From IMG/VR virus record IMGVR_UViG_2718217789_000006: 64,000 bases of DNA, one strand, 5' to 3'. The notes beneath the pieces were generated by a model. It worked only from the letters and a program-made list of their open reading frames with translations, made no database searches and was not told where the DNA came from. The position numbers and the translations under genes were made by a program. Shown here in pieces: positions 43,317 to 54,493 of this stretch. Source of the stretch: a virus (taxonomy: Duplodnaviria > Heunggongvirae > Uroviricota > Caudoviricetes). Every line of letters starts with the position of its first letter. Position 1 is the first letter of the stretch.

Positions 43317-43494
43317 TTTTATGGATCACCTTTCTGATTGATTTCATATTGGCGAGGTGACGTGAGTTAAGTAGAATTGCTGCGGGTGCCTGAGGCTGTC
43401 TGCCTCAGGCATGAACACCAAAAGGCAGATAGAGAAAGCCCCAGTTAACATTACGCGTCCTGTAAGACGCTCAACATTAATCTGAGGCATATGG

Positions 43495-44619
43495 ATGCGG
43501 ATGAAAGAATTAAATAAATTCAGAGTGATAGACCTCTTTTGTGGGGCAGGTGGATTATCTTATGGTTTTCTTCATGGAGAGATGTCTGACTACTTTGAAA
43601 GTATCCTTGCTATTGATAATAATGCTGCAGCTATAAATACCTACAATGCCAATTTTGGTTTGCATGGAGTTCAGGCAAATATTGAGGAGTGGGCATCCAG
43701 CAATACTGTTCCTGAGGCTGATGTGGTCATAGGTGGCCCCCCGTGTCAGGGATTCAGTTTATTGAATAAGAATCGTTATGGTGATCACCGAAGAGCATTG
43801 TGGGAGCCTTATATGGATGTCATTGAGCGTTCAAGGGCTTGTATGTTCGTCATGGAAAATGTCCCCGGATTGCTGATAAGCGATGAGTTTGCGGACATTA
43901 CGTTTAGAGCGAAATCCATGGGCTTTATTCTGCTTAATCCAATGGTGTTGAATACTGCTGACTATGGAGTACCTCAGACAAGAAAACGAACGATAGCAAT
44001 CGGTATCAAACGAGAACTCTTCGATGTGCATAGTATTCCGGCGTTCCCGCCAGCACCAACGCATCGTTCCCCTGATAAGGATGTCGCTTTGCCTGAATGG
44101 GTCTGTACGCGTGATGCAATTGGTGACTTACCTGCTCCTGTTGGAACTGATATTCGTAATGAACTTCCTCCGCTGAACTTACATTTTGGGCGTAATCCCA
44201 CACCTGTTTCTCTGGAGCGATATAAAGCGGTTCCACCAGGAGGTAACCGTTTCGATTTACAGAAAAAAAGACCTGATATAACCCCGGCGTGCTGGCTAAA
44301 AAAGAAATCTGGAGGGACCGATTTGTTTGGACGTCTGTGGTGGGACAGACCTTCAGTAACGATTCGTACTGAGTTTTTCAAACCGGAGAAAGGGCGATAT
44401 TTACATCCGGAAGAGGATCGGCCAATAACTCATCGTGAGGCAGCGAGATTAATGTCTTTTCCTGATAATTTCATTTTTACCGGTTCAAAAACTGAGATTG
44501 CAAAGCAGATCGGGAATGCTGTTCCACCGCTATTTGCGGCAAAAATCGCACAATATGTGTATGGAGTTTTGCAGGGACGGTATAAGAATAACATCAGTAA
44601 GAATAGTCAAGCAGCCTGA
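43495..44619 (+). CDS. DNA cytosine-5 methyltransferase
   Basis: Motif I DLFCGAGG, motif IV GGPPCQGFS, motif VI ENVPG; GAGG RBS 7 nt upstream. Confidence 0.85.
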   Translation: MRMKELNKFRVIDLFCGAGGLSYGFLHGEMSDYFESILAIDNNAAAINTYNANFGLHGVQANIEEWASSNTVPEADVVIGGPPCQGFSLLNKNRYGDHRRALWEPYMDVIERSRACMFVMENVPGLLISDEFADITFRAKSMGFILLNPMVLNTADYGVPQTRKRTIAIGIKRELFDVHSIPAFPPAPTHRSPDKDVALPEWVCTRDAIGDLPAPVGTDIRNELPPLNLHFGRNPTPVSLERYKAVPPGGNRFDLQKKRPDITPACWLKKKSGGTDLFGRLWWDRPSVTIRTEFFKPEKGRYLHPEEDRPITHREAARLMSFPDNFIFTGSKTEIAKQIGNAVPPLFAAKIAQYVYGVLQGRYKNNISKNSQAA

Positions 44620-47017: not shown

Positions 47018-47392
47018 ATGCTCATAGATTTGGTTTTACCTTACCCGCCGACGGTGAACACTTACTGGCGACGCCGTGGCAGCACATATTTTGTATCAAA
47101 AGCCGGGAAGCGTTATCGCCGGGCAGTGGCGCTTATTGTTCGCCAGCAGCGACTGAAATTAAGCCTGTCCGGACGGCTGGCAATAAAAATTATTGCAGAG
47201 CCACCGGATAAGCGCCGCCGCGACCTGGACAATATCCTGAAAGCACCGCTGGATGCGCTGACGCACGCGGGGTTGTTAATGGACGATGAGCAGTTTGATG
47301 AAATCAATATTGTACGTGGAAAGCCAGTATCTGGTGGACGTCTGGGGGTGAAGATTTACCCCATAATGCTTGAAGGGCAGGTCAAAAAATGA
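47018..47392 (+). CDS. rusA: Holliday-junction resolvase RusA
   Basis: …RRRDLDN…GGRL… motifs as in E. coli RusA; about 120 aa. Confidence 0.8.
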   Translation: MLIDLVLPYPPTVNTYWRRRGSTYFVSKAGKRYRRAVALIVRQQRLKLSLSGRLAIKIIAEPPDKRRRDLDNILKAPLDALTHAGLLMDDEQFDEINIVRGKPVSGGRLGVKIYPIMLEGQVKK

Positions 47393-48210
47393 AACTGGAA
47401 GATTTACCGAAATACTACTCCCCAAAATCCCCTGGCCTGACCGATGCATCGGCCTCAACGTCAAAAGATGCGCTGAGTATCACTGATGTGATGGCCGCGC
47501 AGGGCATGACACAGAATCGGGCTGAGATGGGGTTTTCTGCGTTCCTTGGGAAAATGGGCATTAGTATGAATGACAGAGAGCGGGCAACAGAATTGCTGAC
47601 AGAATATGCACTCAGTCGGTGTGATCGCGTGGCGGCGTTAAGAAAACTCCCGGCAGAAATAAAACCGGCAGTGATGCGTATTATGGCTTCGTATGCGTTT
47701 GAAGATTATGCCCGTAGCGCGGCGAGCAAAAAACAGTGCCCCTGCTGTCACGGAAAAAAATTTATTGAAAGCGAGGTTTTTACAAACAAGATCCAGTATC
47801 CGGATGGTAAGCCGCCAGTGTGGGCAAAGTGCACAAAAGGCGTGTATCCGTCTTACTGGGAGGAATGGAAAAAAGTCAGGGAGGTGGTAAAAGTTGCCTG
47901 TCCGGAGTGTGGAGGGAAGGGAGAGGTATCCACTGCCTGTAAAGATTGTCGTGGGCGCGGTGTTGCCATTCATCGTGAAGAGTCGGAAAAACAGGGTGTG
48001 CCGGTTTTCAGAAACTGTCAGCGTTGTGGTGGGCGTGGCTATGAAAGATTACCTTCAACGGAGGCATTTAATGCCATATGTAATGTAACCGATGCCATAT
48101 CTCTTGATACATGGAAAAAAACAGTTAAACGTTTTTACGATACGCTGGTGGTGCAGTTTGATATTGAAGAAGCATGGGCAGAACAACAACTGAAAAAGGT
48201 GACCAGATAG
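47389..48210 (+). CDS. Q: Late-gene antiterminator Q (QuuQ-like, Cys-rich)
   Basis: 273 aa with four CxxCxGxG repeats; between rusA and the late region. Confidence 0.6.
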   Translation: MKLEDLPKYYSPKSPGLTDASASTSKDALSITDVMAAQGMTQNRAEMGFSAFLGKMGISMNDRERATELLTEYALSRCDRVAALRKLPAEIKPAVMRIMASYAFEDYARSAASKKQCPCCHGKKFIESEVFTNKIQYPDGKPPVWAKCTKGVYPSYWEEWKKVREVVKVACPECGGKGEVSTACKDCRGRGVAIHREESEKQGVPVFRNCQRCGGRGYERLPSTEAFNAICNVTDAISLDTWKKTVKRFYDTLVVQFDIEEAWAEQQLKKVTR

Positions 48211-49843: not shown

Positions 49844-49951
49844 TATTGCAGAATTAACCGGGTATCAGGTACGCCCCGAAAATTTTAAATGTCTCACAAT
49901 TCAGACGGTTGACAGTTGTCTGGTTTGCGGGGAGTTTGTTAAAAGAAACTG

Positions 49952-50067
49952 GCATGGTGAATCCCCCTGAGCGGAGGGGCATATCAGCGCAGGTGTTTCT
50001 ACTCTATCCTTTCTGTGCGGGTTCAGGTGCTGATACTGAACTCACCGGGAGGCACCCGGCACCATGC
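49952..50067 (+). ncRNA. Conserved structured non-coding element (candidate sRNA), copy 2
   Basis: Same reverse-complementary outer arms and flank hairpins as copy 1, with a different central segment. Confidence 0.35.
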
Positions 50068-50091
50068 ATATGGTTAACAGACACGTAGCGA

Positions 50092-50117
50092 AGCCCCTCT
50101 CCGGAGGGGCTTTTTTT
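50092..50117 (+). terminator. Intrinsic terminator upstream of nanS-p
   Basis: AGCCCCTC-TCCG-GAGGGGCT hairpin followed by T7. Confidence 0.65.
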
Positions 50118-50346
50118 ATGGGCAAAAAAAGCCCGCGCTGGGAGACGCGGGCGGCAAGGAATAAACAACAAAACGTGAAGTAATATTTCAGCTGGCGAAT
50201 AATACCCCATGGTAATCACTCTGCGCAACTGCGCGGCCTTTTTCGAATTGCGGGCTGTAAGTCTCCCTTCTGCCATTGTCCTGTAACTTCCGAACTTCAG
50301 CCCGCTCTTTATCTGATTCAGTACACTATCCCGGCCGGGAGGATTC

Positions 50347-52293
50347 ATGACATTTAAACATTACGATGTGGTCAGGGCGGCATCGCCGTCAGACCTTGCT
50401 GATGCACTTGCGCAAAAAATTCGTGAAGGATGGCAACCATACGGTGGGCCGTTTTCTTCGTATACGGATGATGGCGCAGCACTTATTCAGGCGATTGTCG
50501 CAGAAGGTGATGTGAGCACACCTGTTGTGGTGAAGCCGACAGGTGGAGAAGGTGCAGTAATCAGTGCCACCAGCGACCCGGAGTATTACTTTGTTGTGGT
50601 TCTGGCAGGGCAGTCAAACGGCATGTCGTATGGTGAAGGTCTTCCGCTGCCGGAGACATATGACCGTCCGGAGCCGCGTATTAAGCAACTGGCGCGTCGC
50701 AGTACGGTGACACCGGGTGGTGTCGCCTGTAAATATAACGACATCATTCCGGCGGACCATTGTCTGCATGATGTGCAGGACATGAGCCGCCTTAACCATC
50801 CGAAAGCGGACCTGTCAAAGGGGCAGTACGGAACCGTGGGGCAGGGGCTGCATATCGCCAAAAAATTGCTGCCGTTTATACCGGCGAATGCGGGCATTCT
50901 GCTGGTTCCGTGCTGTCGTGGTGGTTCAGCGTTCACCACCGGAGCTGATGGCACATACAGTGACGCGAGTGGTGCCTCGGAGAATTCAACCCGCTGGGGT
51001 GTGGACAAGCCGCTGTATAAGGACCTTATCGGTCGAACAAAAGCAGCACTGAAGAAGAATCCGAAAAATGTGCTGTTTGCCGTGGTGTGGATGCAGGGGG
51101 AATTTGATTTTGGCGGTACGCCGGCAAATCACGCAGCACAGTTTGGTGCGCTGGTTGATAAATTCCGTGCAGACCTGGCGGATATGGCAGGTCAGTGCGT
51201 CGGTGGCTCTGCTGGCGGTGTTCCCTGGATATGTGGAGATACGACGTATTTCTGGAAGCAGAAGAACGAATCCACGTACCAGACGGTGTACGGCAGCTAC
51301 AAAAACAAAACGGAAAAGAATATCCATTTCGTACCGTTCATGACGGATGAGAACGGGGTGAATGTGCCGACGAACAAACCGGAAGAAGACCCGGACATTC
51401 CGGGTATCGGATATTACGGTTCGAAATGGCGTGACAGCTCAGCCACCTGGACGTCACAGGACAGGGCGAGCCATTTCAGTTCATGGGCTCGCCGCGGGAT
51501 TATTTCCGACCGTCTGGCAACGGCGATTTTGCGCCATGCGGGAAGAGTGGCGCTAAACGCGGGGGCATCATCGACAGTATCAGAGGTGCGCCCGTCATCG
51601 CCTTCCGGTGCAGAAGCCACAGGCGTCACAACACTGCTCTCTTACCTTGCCAGCGAGTCAGAGGGAAGCCTGAAAGTACAGGGATGGTCAGCCAGTGGCG
51701 GCAAGGCAGAAGTGGTCAGCGATGCGGAGGGAACCGGAGGTAAGGCAGTGAAGCTGACCAAGGAAGCCGGTAAAAGCAGCTGGGTGCTGGAGTACGCCGC
51801 GGGCAACGGTGCGGCTCTGTTACAGAAAGGGGGGCAGATTCGCTGCCGCTTTAAGGTTTCGGGAGCGCTGGCTGCGAACCAGTATGTTATGGCGTTTTAC
51901 TGGCCGGTATCTTCACTGCCACAGGGCGTTGCCCTGACCGGAGACGGGGGGAATAACCTGCTGGCAGCGTTCTACATCCAGACAGATGCAAAAGACCTGA
52001 ATGTGATGTACCACAATGCGAAAGTGGCGACAAACAACCTGAAACTGGGAAGCTTTGGCGCATTTGATAACGAATGGCATACGCTGGCTTTCCGCTTTGC
52101 CGGGAATAACAGCCTTCAGGTGACGCCGGTTATTGATGGTCAGGATGGCACACCGTTCACGCTGACGCAGTCACCGGTCAGTGCCTTTGCGGCGGATAAA
52201 CTGCATGTGACAGACATTACCAGAGGTGCGACTTACCCGGTACTGATAGACAGCATTGCGGTGGAAGTGAACAGCACAGACACTGCGGCATGA
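50347..52293 (+). CDS. NanS-p-like sialate O-acetylesterase (intact copy)
   Basis: 648 aa; first late gene; SGNH-esterase-like core (…VVVLAGQSNGMSYGEG…); paralog of 1773..3623. Confidence 0.7.
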   Translation: MTFKHYDVVRAASPSDLADALAQKIREGWQPYGGPFSSYTDDGAALIQAIVAEGDVSTPVVVKPTGGEGAVISATSDPEYYFVVVLAGQSNGMSYGEGLPLPETYDRPEPRIKQLARRSTVTPGGVACKYNDIIPADHCLHDVQDMSRLNHPKADLSKGQYGTVGQGLHIAKKLLPFIPANAGILLVPCCRGGSAFTTGADGTYSDASGASENSTRWGVDKPLYKDLIGRTKAALKKNPKNVLFAVVWMQGEFDFGGTPANHAAQFGALVDKFRADLADMAGQCVGGSAGGVPWICGDTTYFWKQKNESTYQTVYGSYKNKTEKNIHFVPFMTDENGVNVPTNKPEEDPDIPGIGYYGSKWRDSSATWTSQDRASHFSSWARRGIISDRLATAILRHAGRVALNAGASSTVSEVRPSSPSGAEATGVTTLLSYLASESEGSLKVQGWSASGGKAEVVSDAEGTGGKAVKLTKEAGKSSWVLEYAAGNGAALLQKGGQIRCRFKVSGALAANQYVMAFYWPVSSLPQGVALTGDGGNNLLAAFYIQTDAKDLNVMYHNAKVATNNLKLGSFGAFDNEWHTLAFRFAGNNSLQVTPVIDGQDGTPFTLTQSPVSAFAADKLHVTDITRGATYPVLIDSIAVEVNSTDTAA

Positions 52294-52430
52294 TAAAAAA
52301 AACCGCCAGCGACAGGAATGGACGCTGGCGGTGGTAATACCTATGGAGAAAAAATAAAGGAACGATACTTTCGTGCTCTGGTTTTTTAAATGAAAACAGT
52401 TCTTATTGTCAACAATAACGGAAAGAAATT

Positions 52431-52610
52431 ATGACATTTCTGAACCAGTTAATGCTGTACTTCTGTACGGTGGTCTGTGTGCTGTATCTCCTTTCGGGTG
52501 GGTACAGGGCCATGCGTGACTTCTGGCGCAGACAGATTGACAAAAGGGCCGCTGAGAAAATCAGCGCCAGTCAGTCAGCCGGAAGCAAACCCGAAGAGCC
52601 GCTCATTTAG
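52431..52610 (+). CDS. Small membrane protein (59 aa)
   Basis: MTFLNQLMLYFCTVVCVLYLLSGG… hydrophobic N-terminus; below ORF-track cut-off. Confidence 0.3.
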   Translation: MTFLNQLMLYFCTVVCVLYLLSGGYRAMRDFWRRQIDKRAAEKISASQSAGSKPEEPLI

Positions 52611-52650
52611 CGGCAACTTTCTTAATCACACCTTTCGACGAGAAAATCCC

Positions 52651-52896
52651 ATGTCAGAAATTACATCCCTGGTCACTGCTGAAGCAGTGAAGGAAGTCCT
52701 GCGCTCTGAAGAAGTCCGGAGCGCACTGAAACAGAAACTTCGCCATAACCTGGAAGCGCGTCTTGATGCAGAAGTGGATGCCATTCTGGATGAACTGCTG
52801 GGCGCACCGGCAGCTCCGGAGCCGGAAGGCATCGCGGGTGAGGGGAGTGCTTCAGATAGCGGTGACCCCACACCGGACAGCGACATGATGATGTAA
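52651..52896 (+). CDS. Small acidic protein (81 aa)
   Basis: ATG at 52651 inside the 52477..52896 ORF; acidic C-terminus. Confidence 0.35.
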
Positions 52897-52973
52897 GCAT
52901 GCGTCAGGGACCATCGGTGTGTGCCGGTGGTCTTTTTTATTGTTGTGAGCTTCCGGATTGCGGGAGGCGGGGT

Positions 52974-53189
52974 ATGAACCAGATGGAAAAAATCACAACA
53001 GGTGTGTCATACACCACGTCAGCGGTGGGAACGGGCTACTGGTTCCTGCAGTTGCTGGACAGGGTTTCCCCGTCTCAGTGGGCGGCAATAGGCGTGCTGG
53101 GGAGTCTGCTGTTTGGTCTGCTGACGTACCTGACGAACCTGTATTTCAAAATCAGAGAGGACAGGCGTAAGGCGGCACGGGGAGAGTAA
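52974..53189 (+). CDS. S: Pinholin S21-like with dual start (MNQM…)
   Basis: GGGAGGCGGGG RBS; two in-frame ATGs three codons apart; about 90% nt identity to the prophage-1 holin. Confidence 0.85.
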
Positions 53190-53193
53190 GCTG

Positions 53194-53727
53194 ATGAGCA
53201 GGAAACTCCGCTATGGTTTATCGGCTGCCGTTCTGGCGCTGATTGCCGCAGGTGCTTCTGCGCCTGAAATCCTCGACCAGTTTCTGGATGAAAAGGAAGG
53301 TAACCACACCACGGCATACCGTGATGGTGCGGGTATCTGGACCATCTGCCGAGGCACCATCATGGTGGATGGTAAGCCTGTGATTCCTGGCATGAAGCTG
53401 TCGAAGGAAAAATGCGACCGGGTTAACGCTATCGAACGGGATAAGGCGCTGGCATGGGTGGAGAAAAACATCAAAGTGCCGCTGACCGAACCCCAGAAAG
53501 CGGGGATCGCGTCATTCTGTCCGTACAACATTGGTCCCGGTAAGTGTTTCCCGTCGACGTTTTACAGACGAATTAATGCAGGTGATCGAAAAGGTGCCTG
53601 CGAAGCGATTCGCTGGTGGATTAAGGACGGCGGCAGAGACTGCCGTATTCGCTCAAACAACTGCTACGGTCAGGTATCCCGTCGCGACCAGGAGAGTGCG
53701 CTGGCGTGCTGGGGAATTGACAGATAA
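53194..53727 (+). CDS. R: SAR endolysin
   Basis: Near-identical to the prophage-1 endolysin. Confidence 0.85.
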   Translation: MSRKLRYGLSAAVLALIAAGASAPEILDQFLDEKEGNHTTAYRDGAGIWTICRGTIMVDGKPVIPGMKLSKEKCDRVNAIERDKALAWVEKNIKVPLTEPQKAGIASFCPYNIGPGKCFPSTFYRRINAGDRKGACEAIRWWIKDGGRDCRIRSNNCYGQVSRRDQESALACWGIDR

Positions 53728-54025: not shown

Positions 54026-54493
54026 ATGAACCGCGTACTGTGCGTGGTCATCATTGCCCTGCTGGTGGCCTGTGGTGCGCTTAGTCTGGGGCTGAATCAT
54101 TACCGTGATAACGCCATAACCTACAAAGAGCAGCGCGATAAAAAAGTCAGTGAGCTGGAGCAGGCAAATGCAACCATTACTGATATGCAGCAGCGCCAGC
54201 GTGATGTTGCTGCACTCGATGCAAAATACTCGAGGGAATTAGCCGATGCGAGAGCTGAAAATGAAACTCTGCGTGCTGATGTTGCCGCTGGTCGTAAGCG
54301 CCTGCGGATCAACGCCACCTGCCCCGGTACCGTGCGTGAAGCCACCGGCACCTCCGGCGTGGATAATGCAACCGGCCCCCGACTGGCAGACACCGCTGAA
54401 CGGGATTATTTCATCCTCAGAGAACGGTTGATGATGATGCAGAAGCAGCTGGAAGGGGCGCAGGAATATATCCGCACTCAGTGTATTAACTAG
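54026..54493 (+). CDS. Rz: Rz i-spanin
   Basis: Paralog of the prophage-1 Rz. Confidence 0.8.
   Translation: MNRVLCVVIIALLVACGALSLGLNHYRDNAITYKEQRDKKVSELEQANATITDMQQRQRDVAALDAKYSRELADARAENETLRADVAAGRKRLRINATCPGTVREATGTSGVDNATGPRLADTAERDYFILRERLMMMQKQLEGAQEYIRTQCIN
54261..54431 (+). CDS. Rz1: Rz1 o-spanin lipoprotein
   Basis: Embedded +1 frame, lipobox LVVSAC. Confidence 0.75.
   Translation: MKLCVLMLPLVVSACGSTPPAPVPCVKPPAPPAWIMQPAPDWQTPLNGIISSSENG

Follow-up and report, generated by a model that had tools for sequence, protein, structure and literature searches.

DUF1378 and DUF826, two small late genes between nanS-p and the S21-type holin of a lambdoid prophage: conservation, genomic contexts and possible roles

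Introduction

Small proteins that are expressed late, are dispensable, and are encoded in or beside lysis cassettes are known from several phages, including the S21-71 antiholin, T4 RI and RIII, P1 LydB and the Mu releasin gp25, and several of these accessory lysis regulators are single-pass membrane proteins that act on the transmembrane (TM) helices of holins or on signal-anchor-release (SAR) domains. More generally, the small inner-membrane proteins that phages express late are mostly lysis components or regulators. Another type of small gene in such regions is the moron, which is defined by a promoter of its own and by expression in the lysogen. The morons of lambdoid phages (e.g., lambda bor and lom, and HK97 gp15) are small genes that some members of a group of related phages have and others lack, that sit at module borders (behind Rz, behind tail fibres, or downstream of Q), and that are bounded by terminators; HK97 gp15, in particular, is a small inner-membrane protein of superinfection exclusion.

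Here we describe two small ORFs that lie between nanS-p and the holin gene in the second of two lambdoid prophages, parts of which make up the 64-kb stretch of DNA analysed (hereafter, the window). The initial annotation had not recognised that both ORFs belong to catalogued families, DUF1378 and DUF826. Our result therefore re-identifies two known families whose function is unassigned; the one paper that we found to name them lists both as "proteins of unknown function". What is added here is a map of the genomic contexts in which the two genes occur, evidence that they are real late genes, and the description of a conserved terminator that would insulate the holin gene from them.

Results

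The two ORFs are on the late-gene strand, downstream of the Q antiterminator gene and nanS-p, and the surrounding features of prophage 2 are as follows (L numbers denote loci of the arrangement survey below):

47389-48210: putative Q-type antiterminator, from its position and an "antitermination protein" annotation at the matching site in L001
48785-49843: putative DNA methylase, from sequence motifs and an N6_N4_Mtase gene at the equivalent position in L202-L204
49923-50123: STnc100-like RNA in the late region
50347-52293, + strand: nanS-p, sialate O-acetylesterase of 648 aa (Pfam DUF1737, SASA and DUF6645)
52295-52331, - strand: A-run and 9-bp GC-rich hairpin just past the nanS-p stop; leftward, a terminator-like hairpin followed by T8
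52431-52610, + strand: DUF1378 gene, 59 aa, ATG start (Pfam PF07125, phrog_494)
52651-52896, + strand: DUF826 gene, 81 aa, ATG start (Pfam PF05696, phrog_311)
52906-52945, + strand: intrinsic-terminator-like hairpin in the DUF826-holin gap, 12-13 bp stem and T-run (fold -20.1 kcal/mol)
52974-53189, + strand: S21-type class II holin (pinholin family), 71 aa (Pfam Phage_holin_2_1, E = 9e-33)
53194-53727, + strand: R21-type lysozyme with a hydrophobic, SAR-like N-terminal segment (Pfam Phage_lysozyme)
54026-54493, + strand: Rz (i-spanin), from the ORF and a "lysis protein" annotation in the identical locus L001
54246-54431: Rz1, embedded in Rz, with lipobox LVVSAC

The holin gene has two start codons (MNQM...) and a strong Shine-Dalgarno (SD) site, the lysozyme is presumably a SAR endolysin, given its likeness to phage 21 R, and the terminase genes come after Rz/Rz1.

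The DUF1378 protein matches its Pfam model from end to end (residues 1-59 to model positions 1-59 of 59; E = 2e-39, 134 bits vs. a gathering cutoff of 25). Its gene is identical to ECs1210 of the Sakai prophage Sp5 (180 of 180 nt), and the protein is identical to vb_24B_23 of phi24B and is represented in RefSeq by WP_000143458.1 ("DUF1378 family protein", PGAP). The DUF826 match is similarly complete over the model (residues 1-75 to positions 1-75 of 75; E = 3e-40, 136.6 bits vs. a cutoff of 25), with ECs1211 of Sakai, vb_24B_24 of phi24B and WP_001290230.1 ("DUF826 domain-containing protein", PGAP) as its counterparts. Such full-length matches, together with CDS annotation in about 1000 complete E. 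coli genomes, place both ORFs far beyond what chance would give. No informative match to either protein emerged from NCBIfam, a PDB sequence search, or Foldseek against PDB and BFVD, and neither is matched at E <= 1 by any family among the defence HMMs of PADLOC-DB.

Both ORFs are genuine genes under purifying selection. Among four alleles sharing 83-100% DNA identity, the variable columns were distributed over codon positions 1/2/3 as 5/2/12 in DUF1378 and as 0/1/12 in the first 51 codons of DUF826. The dN/dS ratio (Nei-Gojobori) among close alleles was 0.19 for DUF1378 and 0.04-0.11 for the N-terminal domain of DUF826, the latter reaching 0.4-0.6 against distant relatives; against the 61% identical homologue in L202 the ratios were 0.18 (DUF1378) and 0.41 (DUF826), with synonymous sites near saturation. 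SD pairing is weak in the window alleles (-3.5 and -3.1 kcal/mol, vs. -8.6 to -11 for most neighbouring late genes), and diverged homologues carry canonical SD sites (e.g., GGGAGGG, AGGAG, AGGAGAA). Translation of DUF1378 is documented by RIBOseq of the identical Sakai gene. That is, ECs1210 showed a transcript RPKM of 40.8, a footprint RPKM of 22.5, a ribosomal coverage value (RCV) of 0.67 and a coverage of 0.85 in LB (Hucker et al. 2017, PMC5597208, S2 Table), and 35.2, 14.9, 0.51 and 0.82, respectively, in BHI, all above the thresholds of that study (1 RPKM, RCV 0.25 and 0.5 coverage); the cultures were uninduced, and identical copies in several prophages are not distinguishable in these data. 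The ribosome profiling that had been proposed as a check on the two ORFs thus speaks for translation of the first one, the second (ECs1211) being absent from the same table, and the conservation check that had been proposed alongside it gave a strong result, with annotated CDS in the complete genomes mentioned above.

An alternative that bears directly on gene structure is that the region encodes a single longer protein, i.e., either the 139-aa ORF at 52477-52896 or a DUF1378-DUF826 frameshift fusion, or that it acts as RNA (e.g., as a target of the small RNA 24B_1). The DUF826 frame is indeed open upstream into the DUF1378 gene, and forms of 115-148 aa are annotated in some databases and grouped as phrog_8301. 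However, variation in the overlap falls at third positions of the DUF1378 frame (the 5/2/12 pattern above) and not of the +1 frame, and distant DUF826 proteins begin at an M-x-E-I/M-K motif, most of them with a recognisable SD site; the long "DUF826" proteins result from starts called too far upstream in the overlapping frame rather than from fusion. A programmed +1 frameshift from DUF1378 into DUF826 was rejected, since neither a slippery site nor a stop context is conserved and the codon-position variation is that of separate genes. The few proteins that combine two domains, P0180 (both domains) and P0218 (holin and DUF826), are isolated, scrambled chimeras, and domain fusion was accordingly discarded as evidence of interaction. 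As for RNA, a prediction by Nejman-Falenczyk et al. places a 24B_1 site upstream of vb_24B_23 (PMC4426718), but 24B_1 pairs with the DUF1378 leader at -12.3 kcal/mol at best, which 7% of random windows also attain, and the 64-kb window lacks a 24B_1 gene. A search of Rfam also gave no RNA family within 52294-52973.

The coordinates, hydropathy and charge of the two products agree with the initial description of a membrane-protein ORF and an acidic ORF. DUF1378 has one strongly hydrophobic segment at residues ~3-25 (maximal Kyte-Doolittle mean over 19 residues, 1.98), followed by a basic tail (8 K/R vs. 5 D/E beyond the TM segment; pI 10.3), and its AF2 model is a single long helix over residues 2-50 with a short disordered end. 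The most conserved residues (L9, Y10, F11, V15, L18, Y19, L20, G23, G24 and Y25) all lie in the TM segment, which carries the motif LYFCT.VC.LYL.SGGY. DUF1378 is hence predicted to be a bitopic inner-membrane protein with a basic cytoplasmic helix, the N-out/C-in topology following from the positive-inside rule. S21 pinholins have two TM domains, the first of which is a SAR domain; DUF1378 has a single hydrophobic segment and DUF826 none, no Pfam holin model matches either ORF, and an hhalign comparison of DUF1378 with an alignment of S21 holins returned a probability of 3%, so that DUF1378 was also rejected as a homologue of the second TM helix of the pinholin.

DUF826 (pI 4.2, net charge -11) is predicted from its AF2 model to be an acidic, cytoplasmic two-helix protein, with helices at residues 2-17 and 20-49 (pLDDT ~90 over 20-50) and disorder from residue 56 onward. 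Copies from E. coli hardly vary over the first 51 residues. The disordered tail is acidic, rich in Pro/Glu/Ser/Gly, and ends in MMM; its variation, which is always in frame, gives proteins of 81-101 aa that keep a hydrophobic C-terminus (MMM, MML, TML or TLL). The window allele is the short, 81-aa tail variant and ECs1211 a 90-aa variant. Among K-12 proteins, YnfO was rejected as a homologue because it is annotated as DUF3950 and YbcW because it bears no resemblance, by eye, to either protein; the placement of both near essD/essQ is also unlike that of the pair.

The presence of the pair in prophage 2 and of non-coding hairpins at the same place in prophage 1, as originally noted, was borne out by HMM searches and by alignment of the two intervals. 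In a search of all ORFs of the window, each family matched once only. The corresponding interval of prophage 1, from the nanS-p stop (3623) to the holin start (4071), is ~450 bp of unrelated non-coding hairpins that includes no ORF matching DUF1378 or DUF826, and homology between the two intervals is limited to roughly the 80 bp that precede the holin, a hairpin and T-run among them. Both types of interval are widespread. The 680-bp interval of prophage 2 has 100% DNA identity to many chromosomes of O157:H7 and other STEC, and the pair interval occurs in 1021 of 5426 complete E. coli genomes, 885 of which hold at least 80% of it, vs. 671-699 genomes, at a median of five copies per genome, for the non-coding type. 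The two proteins occur in 309 and 306 of 50,697 phage records, mostly of Stx-converting phages. Beyond these, the DUF826 profile retrieved 53 clusters among 1.84 billion representative proteins, and word-indexed searches with the two proteins retrieved 123 and 106 clusters, all named ones from Escherichia or Shigella; a profile search of genome contigs with the DUF1378 alignment gave no relative, and the initial scan of viral contigs gave near-identical E. coli prophages only. DUF1378 and DUF826 are very small, mobile families that recur at the borders of late modules.

Our survey of IMG/VR loci and public records revealed five arrangements of the two genes:

Arrangement A: nanS-p, DUF1378, DUF826, terminator, S21 holin, (YdfR), lysozyme, Rz
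Arrangement B: S21-like pinholin (43-52% identical), R21-like endolysin (~75%), Rz/Rz1, DUF1378 alone, tailspike-like gene
Arrangement C (Mu-like prophages): baseplate, tail fibre, tail-fibre assembly (Tfa), [DUF826], DUF1378, [acyltransferase, opposite strand], Dam-type methylase
Arrangement D: tail-fibre assembly gene (either strand), Pin-like invertase, NanS-like esterase, DUF1378, DUF826
Arrangement E: holin, endolysin, Rz/Rz1, ~160 nt, DUF826 alone, terminase

Arrangement A, found in the window and in L001-L004, L154-L157 and L202-L204, persists at 61% DUF1378 identity. Arrangement B is represented by 24 IMG/VR contigs and by a record named Stenotrophomonas phage BUCT709; in it, the start codon of DUF1378 overlaps the stop codon of Rz. 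Arrangement C comprises seven loci, three of which have DUF826, and the order of the pair is reversed there. Arrangement D comprises 33 loci with no lysis gene within 4 kb; its esterase, DUF1378 and DUF826 are 52%, 54% and 40% identical, respectively, to the window proteins, and the N-terminal ~100 residues of the esterase differ from those of the window NanS-p. Finally, arrangement E was seen at about 40 loci. The order esterase-DUF1378-DUF826 (L001-L004, L121-L157 and L202-L204) is thus kept together through substantial divergence, each small gene is also able to stand alone, and both are invariably on the late strand and at module borders. That DUF1378 and DUF826 turn up together in three settings, in one of them with their order reversed, speaks for their being functionally linked.

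With respect to regulation, a consensus scan of 52200-53250 revealed no sigma-70-like promoter, and the only promoter listed by Hucker et al. is a weak prediction that lies 174 bp upstream of ECs1210 (PMC5597208). The lack of room for a promoter, given the overlap with Rz in arrangement B and gaps of only ~60-140 nt after the esterase or Tfa gene elsewhere, favors a role in the lytic cycle rather than in the lysogen. The hairpin past the nanS-p stop folds at -20.1 kcal/mol (z = -6.8), and its stem is conserved in L002-L004. A hairpin and U-run before the holin are also present in prophage 1 (3989-4021), L004 and L202, with different stem sequences, and it is this retention of the structure with different stems that makes the pre-holin terminator look selected. 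Under such an organization, Q-modified polymerase would read through the terminator, and Q-independent transcription of nanS-p and the pair would halt before the lysis genes. Transcript and footprint levels of ECs1210 in Sakai are about three times those of the holin gene ECs1212, a ratio confounded by copy number (PMC5597208) and compatible with a terminator that stops Q-independent transcripts. Mitomycin C increases nanS-p transcription by 1-2.4 logs (PMC10462455), and ECs1211 was growth-phase regulated on microarrays (PMC2241611).

Discussion

Our tentative reading of these results is that the pair is a dispensable late accessory at the inner membrane, with lysis timing as its most plausible, and still only possible, target. 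The pair is probably made late, together with nanS-p, from the Q-antiterminated transcript. DUF1378 is predicted to span the inner membrane, its N-terminus on the outer side and its basic helix on the cytoplasmic side, and its highly conserved TM helix, with its Gly and aromatic residues, would pack against itself or another TM helix; the acidic DUF826 would be a cytoplasmic protein that may dock onto the basic DUF1378 tail. Under our hypothesis, the pair would not carry out lysis itself but fine-tune the firing of the pinholin and SAR endolysin in an antiholin- or releasin-like manner. We rank tuning of lysis or of the envelope first because the proteins are of the late, inner-membrane type that mostly serves lysis and because both genes repeatedly abut lysis cassettes (arrangements A, B and E), the pair lying directly before S21 holins and DUF1378 or DUF826 alone lying after Rz/Rz1. 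The hypothesis is weakened by arrangements C and D, which are away from lysis genes, by the terminator between the pair and the holin, by the many S21 cassettes that do without the pair (prophage 1, and the non-coding interval in 699 genomes), and by the lack of similarity to holins; the weak SD sites of the window alleles count against it as well. Further, adjacency alone is weak evidence here, since morons, too, are classically found behind Rz and behind tail fibres.

A more specific form of the lysis-timing hypothesis, which we regard as quite unlikely, is a two-part device in which the conserved, Gly/Tyr-rich TM helix of DUF1378 binds the hole-forming helix of the pinholin or the SAR helix of the endolysin and the acidic DUF826 docks on the basic DUF1378 tail as a short-lived timer or adaptor, a property that would come from its disordered tail and hydrophobic C-terminus. 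If true, such a timer would influence the time of toxin and virion release in Stx phages.

Alternatively, the esterase and the two small genes may form one module in which the pair helps a virion-associated O-acetylesterase to fold, to be processed, to be loaded onto virions or to be handled near the membrane, a hypothesis that we consider unlikely. The order of the trio is kept in two settings, before the lysis cassette and beside tail-fibre/invertase genes, and at ~52%, 54% and 40% identity and with a different N-terminal domain in the esterase, although such linkage could be simple co-inheritance. The NanS-p of phi24B (gp84) decorates the capsid, with its DUF1737 domain binding the hexon, and is later cleaved (bioRxiv 10.64898/2026.04.10.717836), and such decoration and proteolytic maturation make dedicated helpers conceivable. 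However, each small gene also occurs in loci that have no esterase, where it follows Rz or, in Mu-like prophages, Tfa; nanS-p is found without the pair in prophage 1; and it is hard to see what a membrane protein would contribute to the decoration of a capsid that is assembled in the cytoplasm. The pair itself is probably not a virion component, since the text on the phi24B virion proteome, which reports 15 structural proteins and four contaminants, does not name the small proteins among them (bioRxiv 10.64898/2026.04.10.717836), although phi24B encodes both.

It is also conceivable, if unlikely, that the pair is moron cargo of benefit to a lysogen or to an infected cell, for instance by superinfection exclusion at the inner membrane in the manner of HK97 gp15 or by another host-directed effect. 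Several observations agree with this hypothesis: the presence/absence polymorphism at the same site between otherwise similar prophages (885-1021 vs. 671-699 genomes), the occurrence at several classic moron sites, the terminator-like hairpins on both sides (the downstream one at 52906-52945), the tiny and taxonomically narrow family (the 53 clusters above), the ECs1210 mRNA and footprints in uninduced Sakai, with values roughly threefold those of the holin gene downstream, and the growth-phase regulation of ECs1211 (PMC2241611). On the other hand, no promoter-like site precedes the pair, there is no room for one in the group in which the DUF1378 start codon overlaps the Rz stop, no PADLOC defence model matched, and the uninduced signal may stem from cells in which induction was spontaneous and from reads that identical prophage copies have in common. 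Finally, the fusion and RNA readings are largely excluded by the codon-position, start-site and pairing data above, and misannotation of the region is, overall, highly improbable.

The distinction among these hypotheses matters because the pair immediately precedes the lysis genes in most Stx phage records searched, and toxin release in disease depends on lysis timing. If the pair modulates lysis timing or the state of the membrane, the amount and timing of toxin release would be affected; if it serves the NanS-p esterase instead, it would bear on the interaction of Stx phages with mucus.

In comparison with known systems, the pair differs from the described accessory lysis regulators in several respects: neither sequence nor profile comparison relates it to S21 holins, a terminator stands between it and S, and some copies are remote from any lysis gene. 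It may differ from morons in that no promoter was detected (scan of 52200-53250) and in that one DUF1378 subgroup is translationally coupled to Rz; like HK97 gp15, DUF1378 is small and a predicted inner-membrane protein. The closest counterparts are the genes of Sakai and phi24B. DUF826 is of the same family as ECs1211 and vb_24B_24 and occupies the same position, with a tail variant of 81 aa here vs. 90 aa in ECs1211, and DUF1378 is the same gene as ECs1210 and vb_24B_23, in the same position between nanS-p and S, and differs from them in nothing.

Hairpins at either end of the nanS-p–holin interval

In both prophages, the interval between nanS-p (the sialate O-acetylesterase gene) and the S21-type holin gene carries hairpins at each end:

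52906-52945, plus strand: GC-rich hairpin followed by a T-run, directly 5' of the prophage 2 holin
3989-4021, plus strand: GC-rich hairpin followed by a T-run, directly 5' of the prophage 1 holin
52295-52331: A-run followed by a GCCAGCG-type hairpin, directly 3' of the prophage 2 nanS-p stop
3625-3670 and about 3772-3815: A-runs followed by GCCAGCG-type hairpins, directly 3' of the prophage 1 nanS-p stop

The same arrangement directly 5' of an S21-type holin is found in two diverged relatives among the comparison loci (L004, about 4136-4166; L202, about 6521-6553), and across these relatives and both prophages the structure (hairpin plus T-run) is retained while the stem sequences are different. 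The pre-holin element looks like a conserved intrinsic terminator, one that shields the lysis genes from upstream transcription that is independent of Q, the late antiterminator. The elements that follow nanS-p read, on the minus strand, as hairpin-plus-T-run terminators in both prophages, despite the plus-strand orientation of every adjoining gene. Among E. coli genomes, 699 contain the prophage 1 form of the interval, with a median copy number of 5 per genome, and no feature is annotated in it.

Small genes and reading frames of the lysis cassettes

Two further reading frames lie in or next to these cassettes:

52477-52896, plus strand: 139-aa ORF in the DUF826 frame, reaching back into the DUF1378 gene (prophage 2)
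4279-4626, plus strand: extra 115-aa ORF, Pfam DUF1327 ("YdfR family"), between the prophage 1 holin and endolysin

Codon-position variation indicates that the 139-aa long form of DUF826 is an annotation artefact. Over-extended DUF826 annotations also occur in public records (148 aa for vb_24B_24 of phi24B; 115-141 aa for the PGAP forms) and have a PHROG of their own, phrog_8301. The DUF1327 gene, which is absent from prophage 2 and also present in comparison loci L002, L003, L156 and L157, is a further small gene within S21-type lysis cassettes, besides DUF1378 and DUF826.

The holin genes differ as well. That of prophage 2 has two in-frame starts (MNQM..., 52974-52985) without a basic residue in between, some relatives have MYQM or MKM in place of MNQM, and that of prophage 1 (start at 4071) is limited to the short 68-aa form and lacks an in-frame ATG upstream. 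Judging from these start codons, the antiholin arrangement may differ between the two cassettes.

A record named Stenotrophomonas phage vB_SmeS_BUCT709 (OM816835.1) encodes a lysis-cassette endolysin ~75% identical to the endolysin of the E. coli prophage. The Rz-like and DUF1378-like proteins of this record share 100% identity with those of IMG/VR contig L090 and 90-100% with those of the 23 other contigs of that group, in which DUF1378 stands alone after Rz/Rz1.

RNA families and esterase domains

Rfam matches include:

49923-50123, plus strand: STnc100 sRNA, 148 bits, 5' of the prophage 2 nanS-p
1464-1636, plus strand: STnc100 sRNA, 105 bits, 5' of the prophage 1 nanS-p
43384-43564, plus strand: sok antitoxin RNA, 61 bits (gathering threshold 59), prophage 2 early region

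The sok match suggests that prophage 2 carries a hok/sok-type locus in its early region.

The prophage 1 nanS-p (1773-3623) is split by one in-frame TAG (2151-2153), where prophage 2 has CAG (Gln); this split is of interest given a recent report that DUF1737 is the capsid-binding domain (bioRxiv 10.64898/2026.04.10.717836). In comparison loci L121-L153, DUF1378 and then DUF826 follow a NanS-like esterase that has a different N-terminal domain and adjoins genes for a Pin-like invertase and tail-fibre assembly (e.g., L122, 1020-4246). This arrangement suggests that esterases of the NanS-like family attach to virions via interchangeable N-terminal domains.
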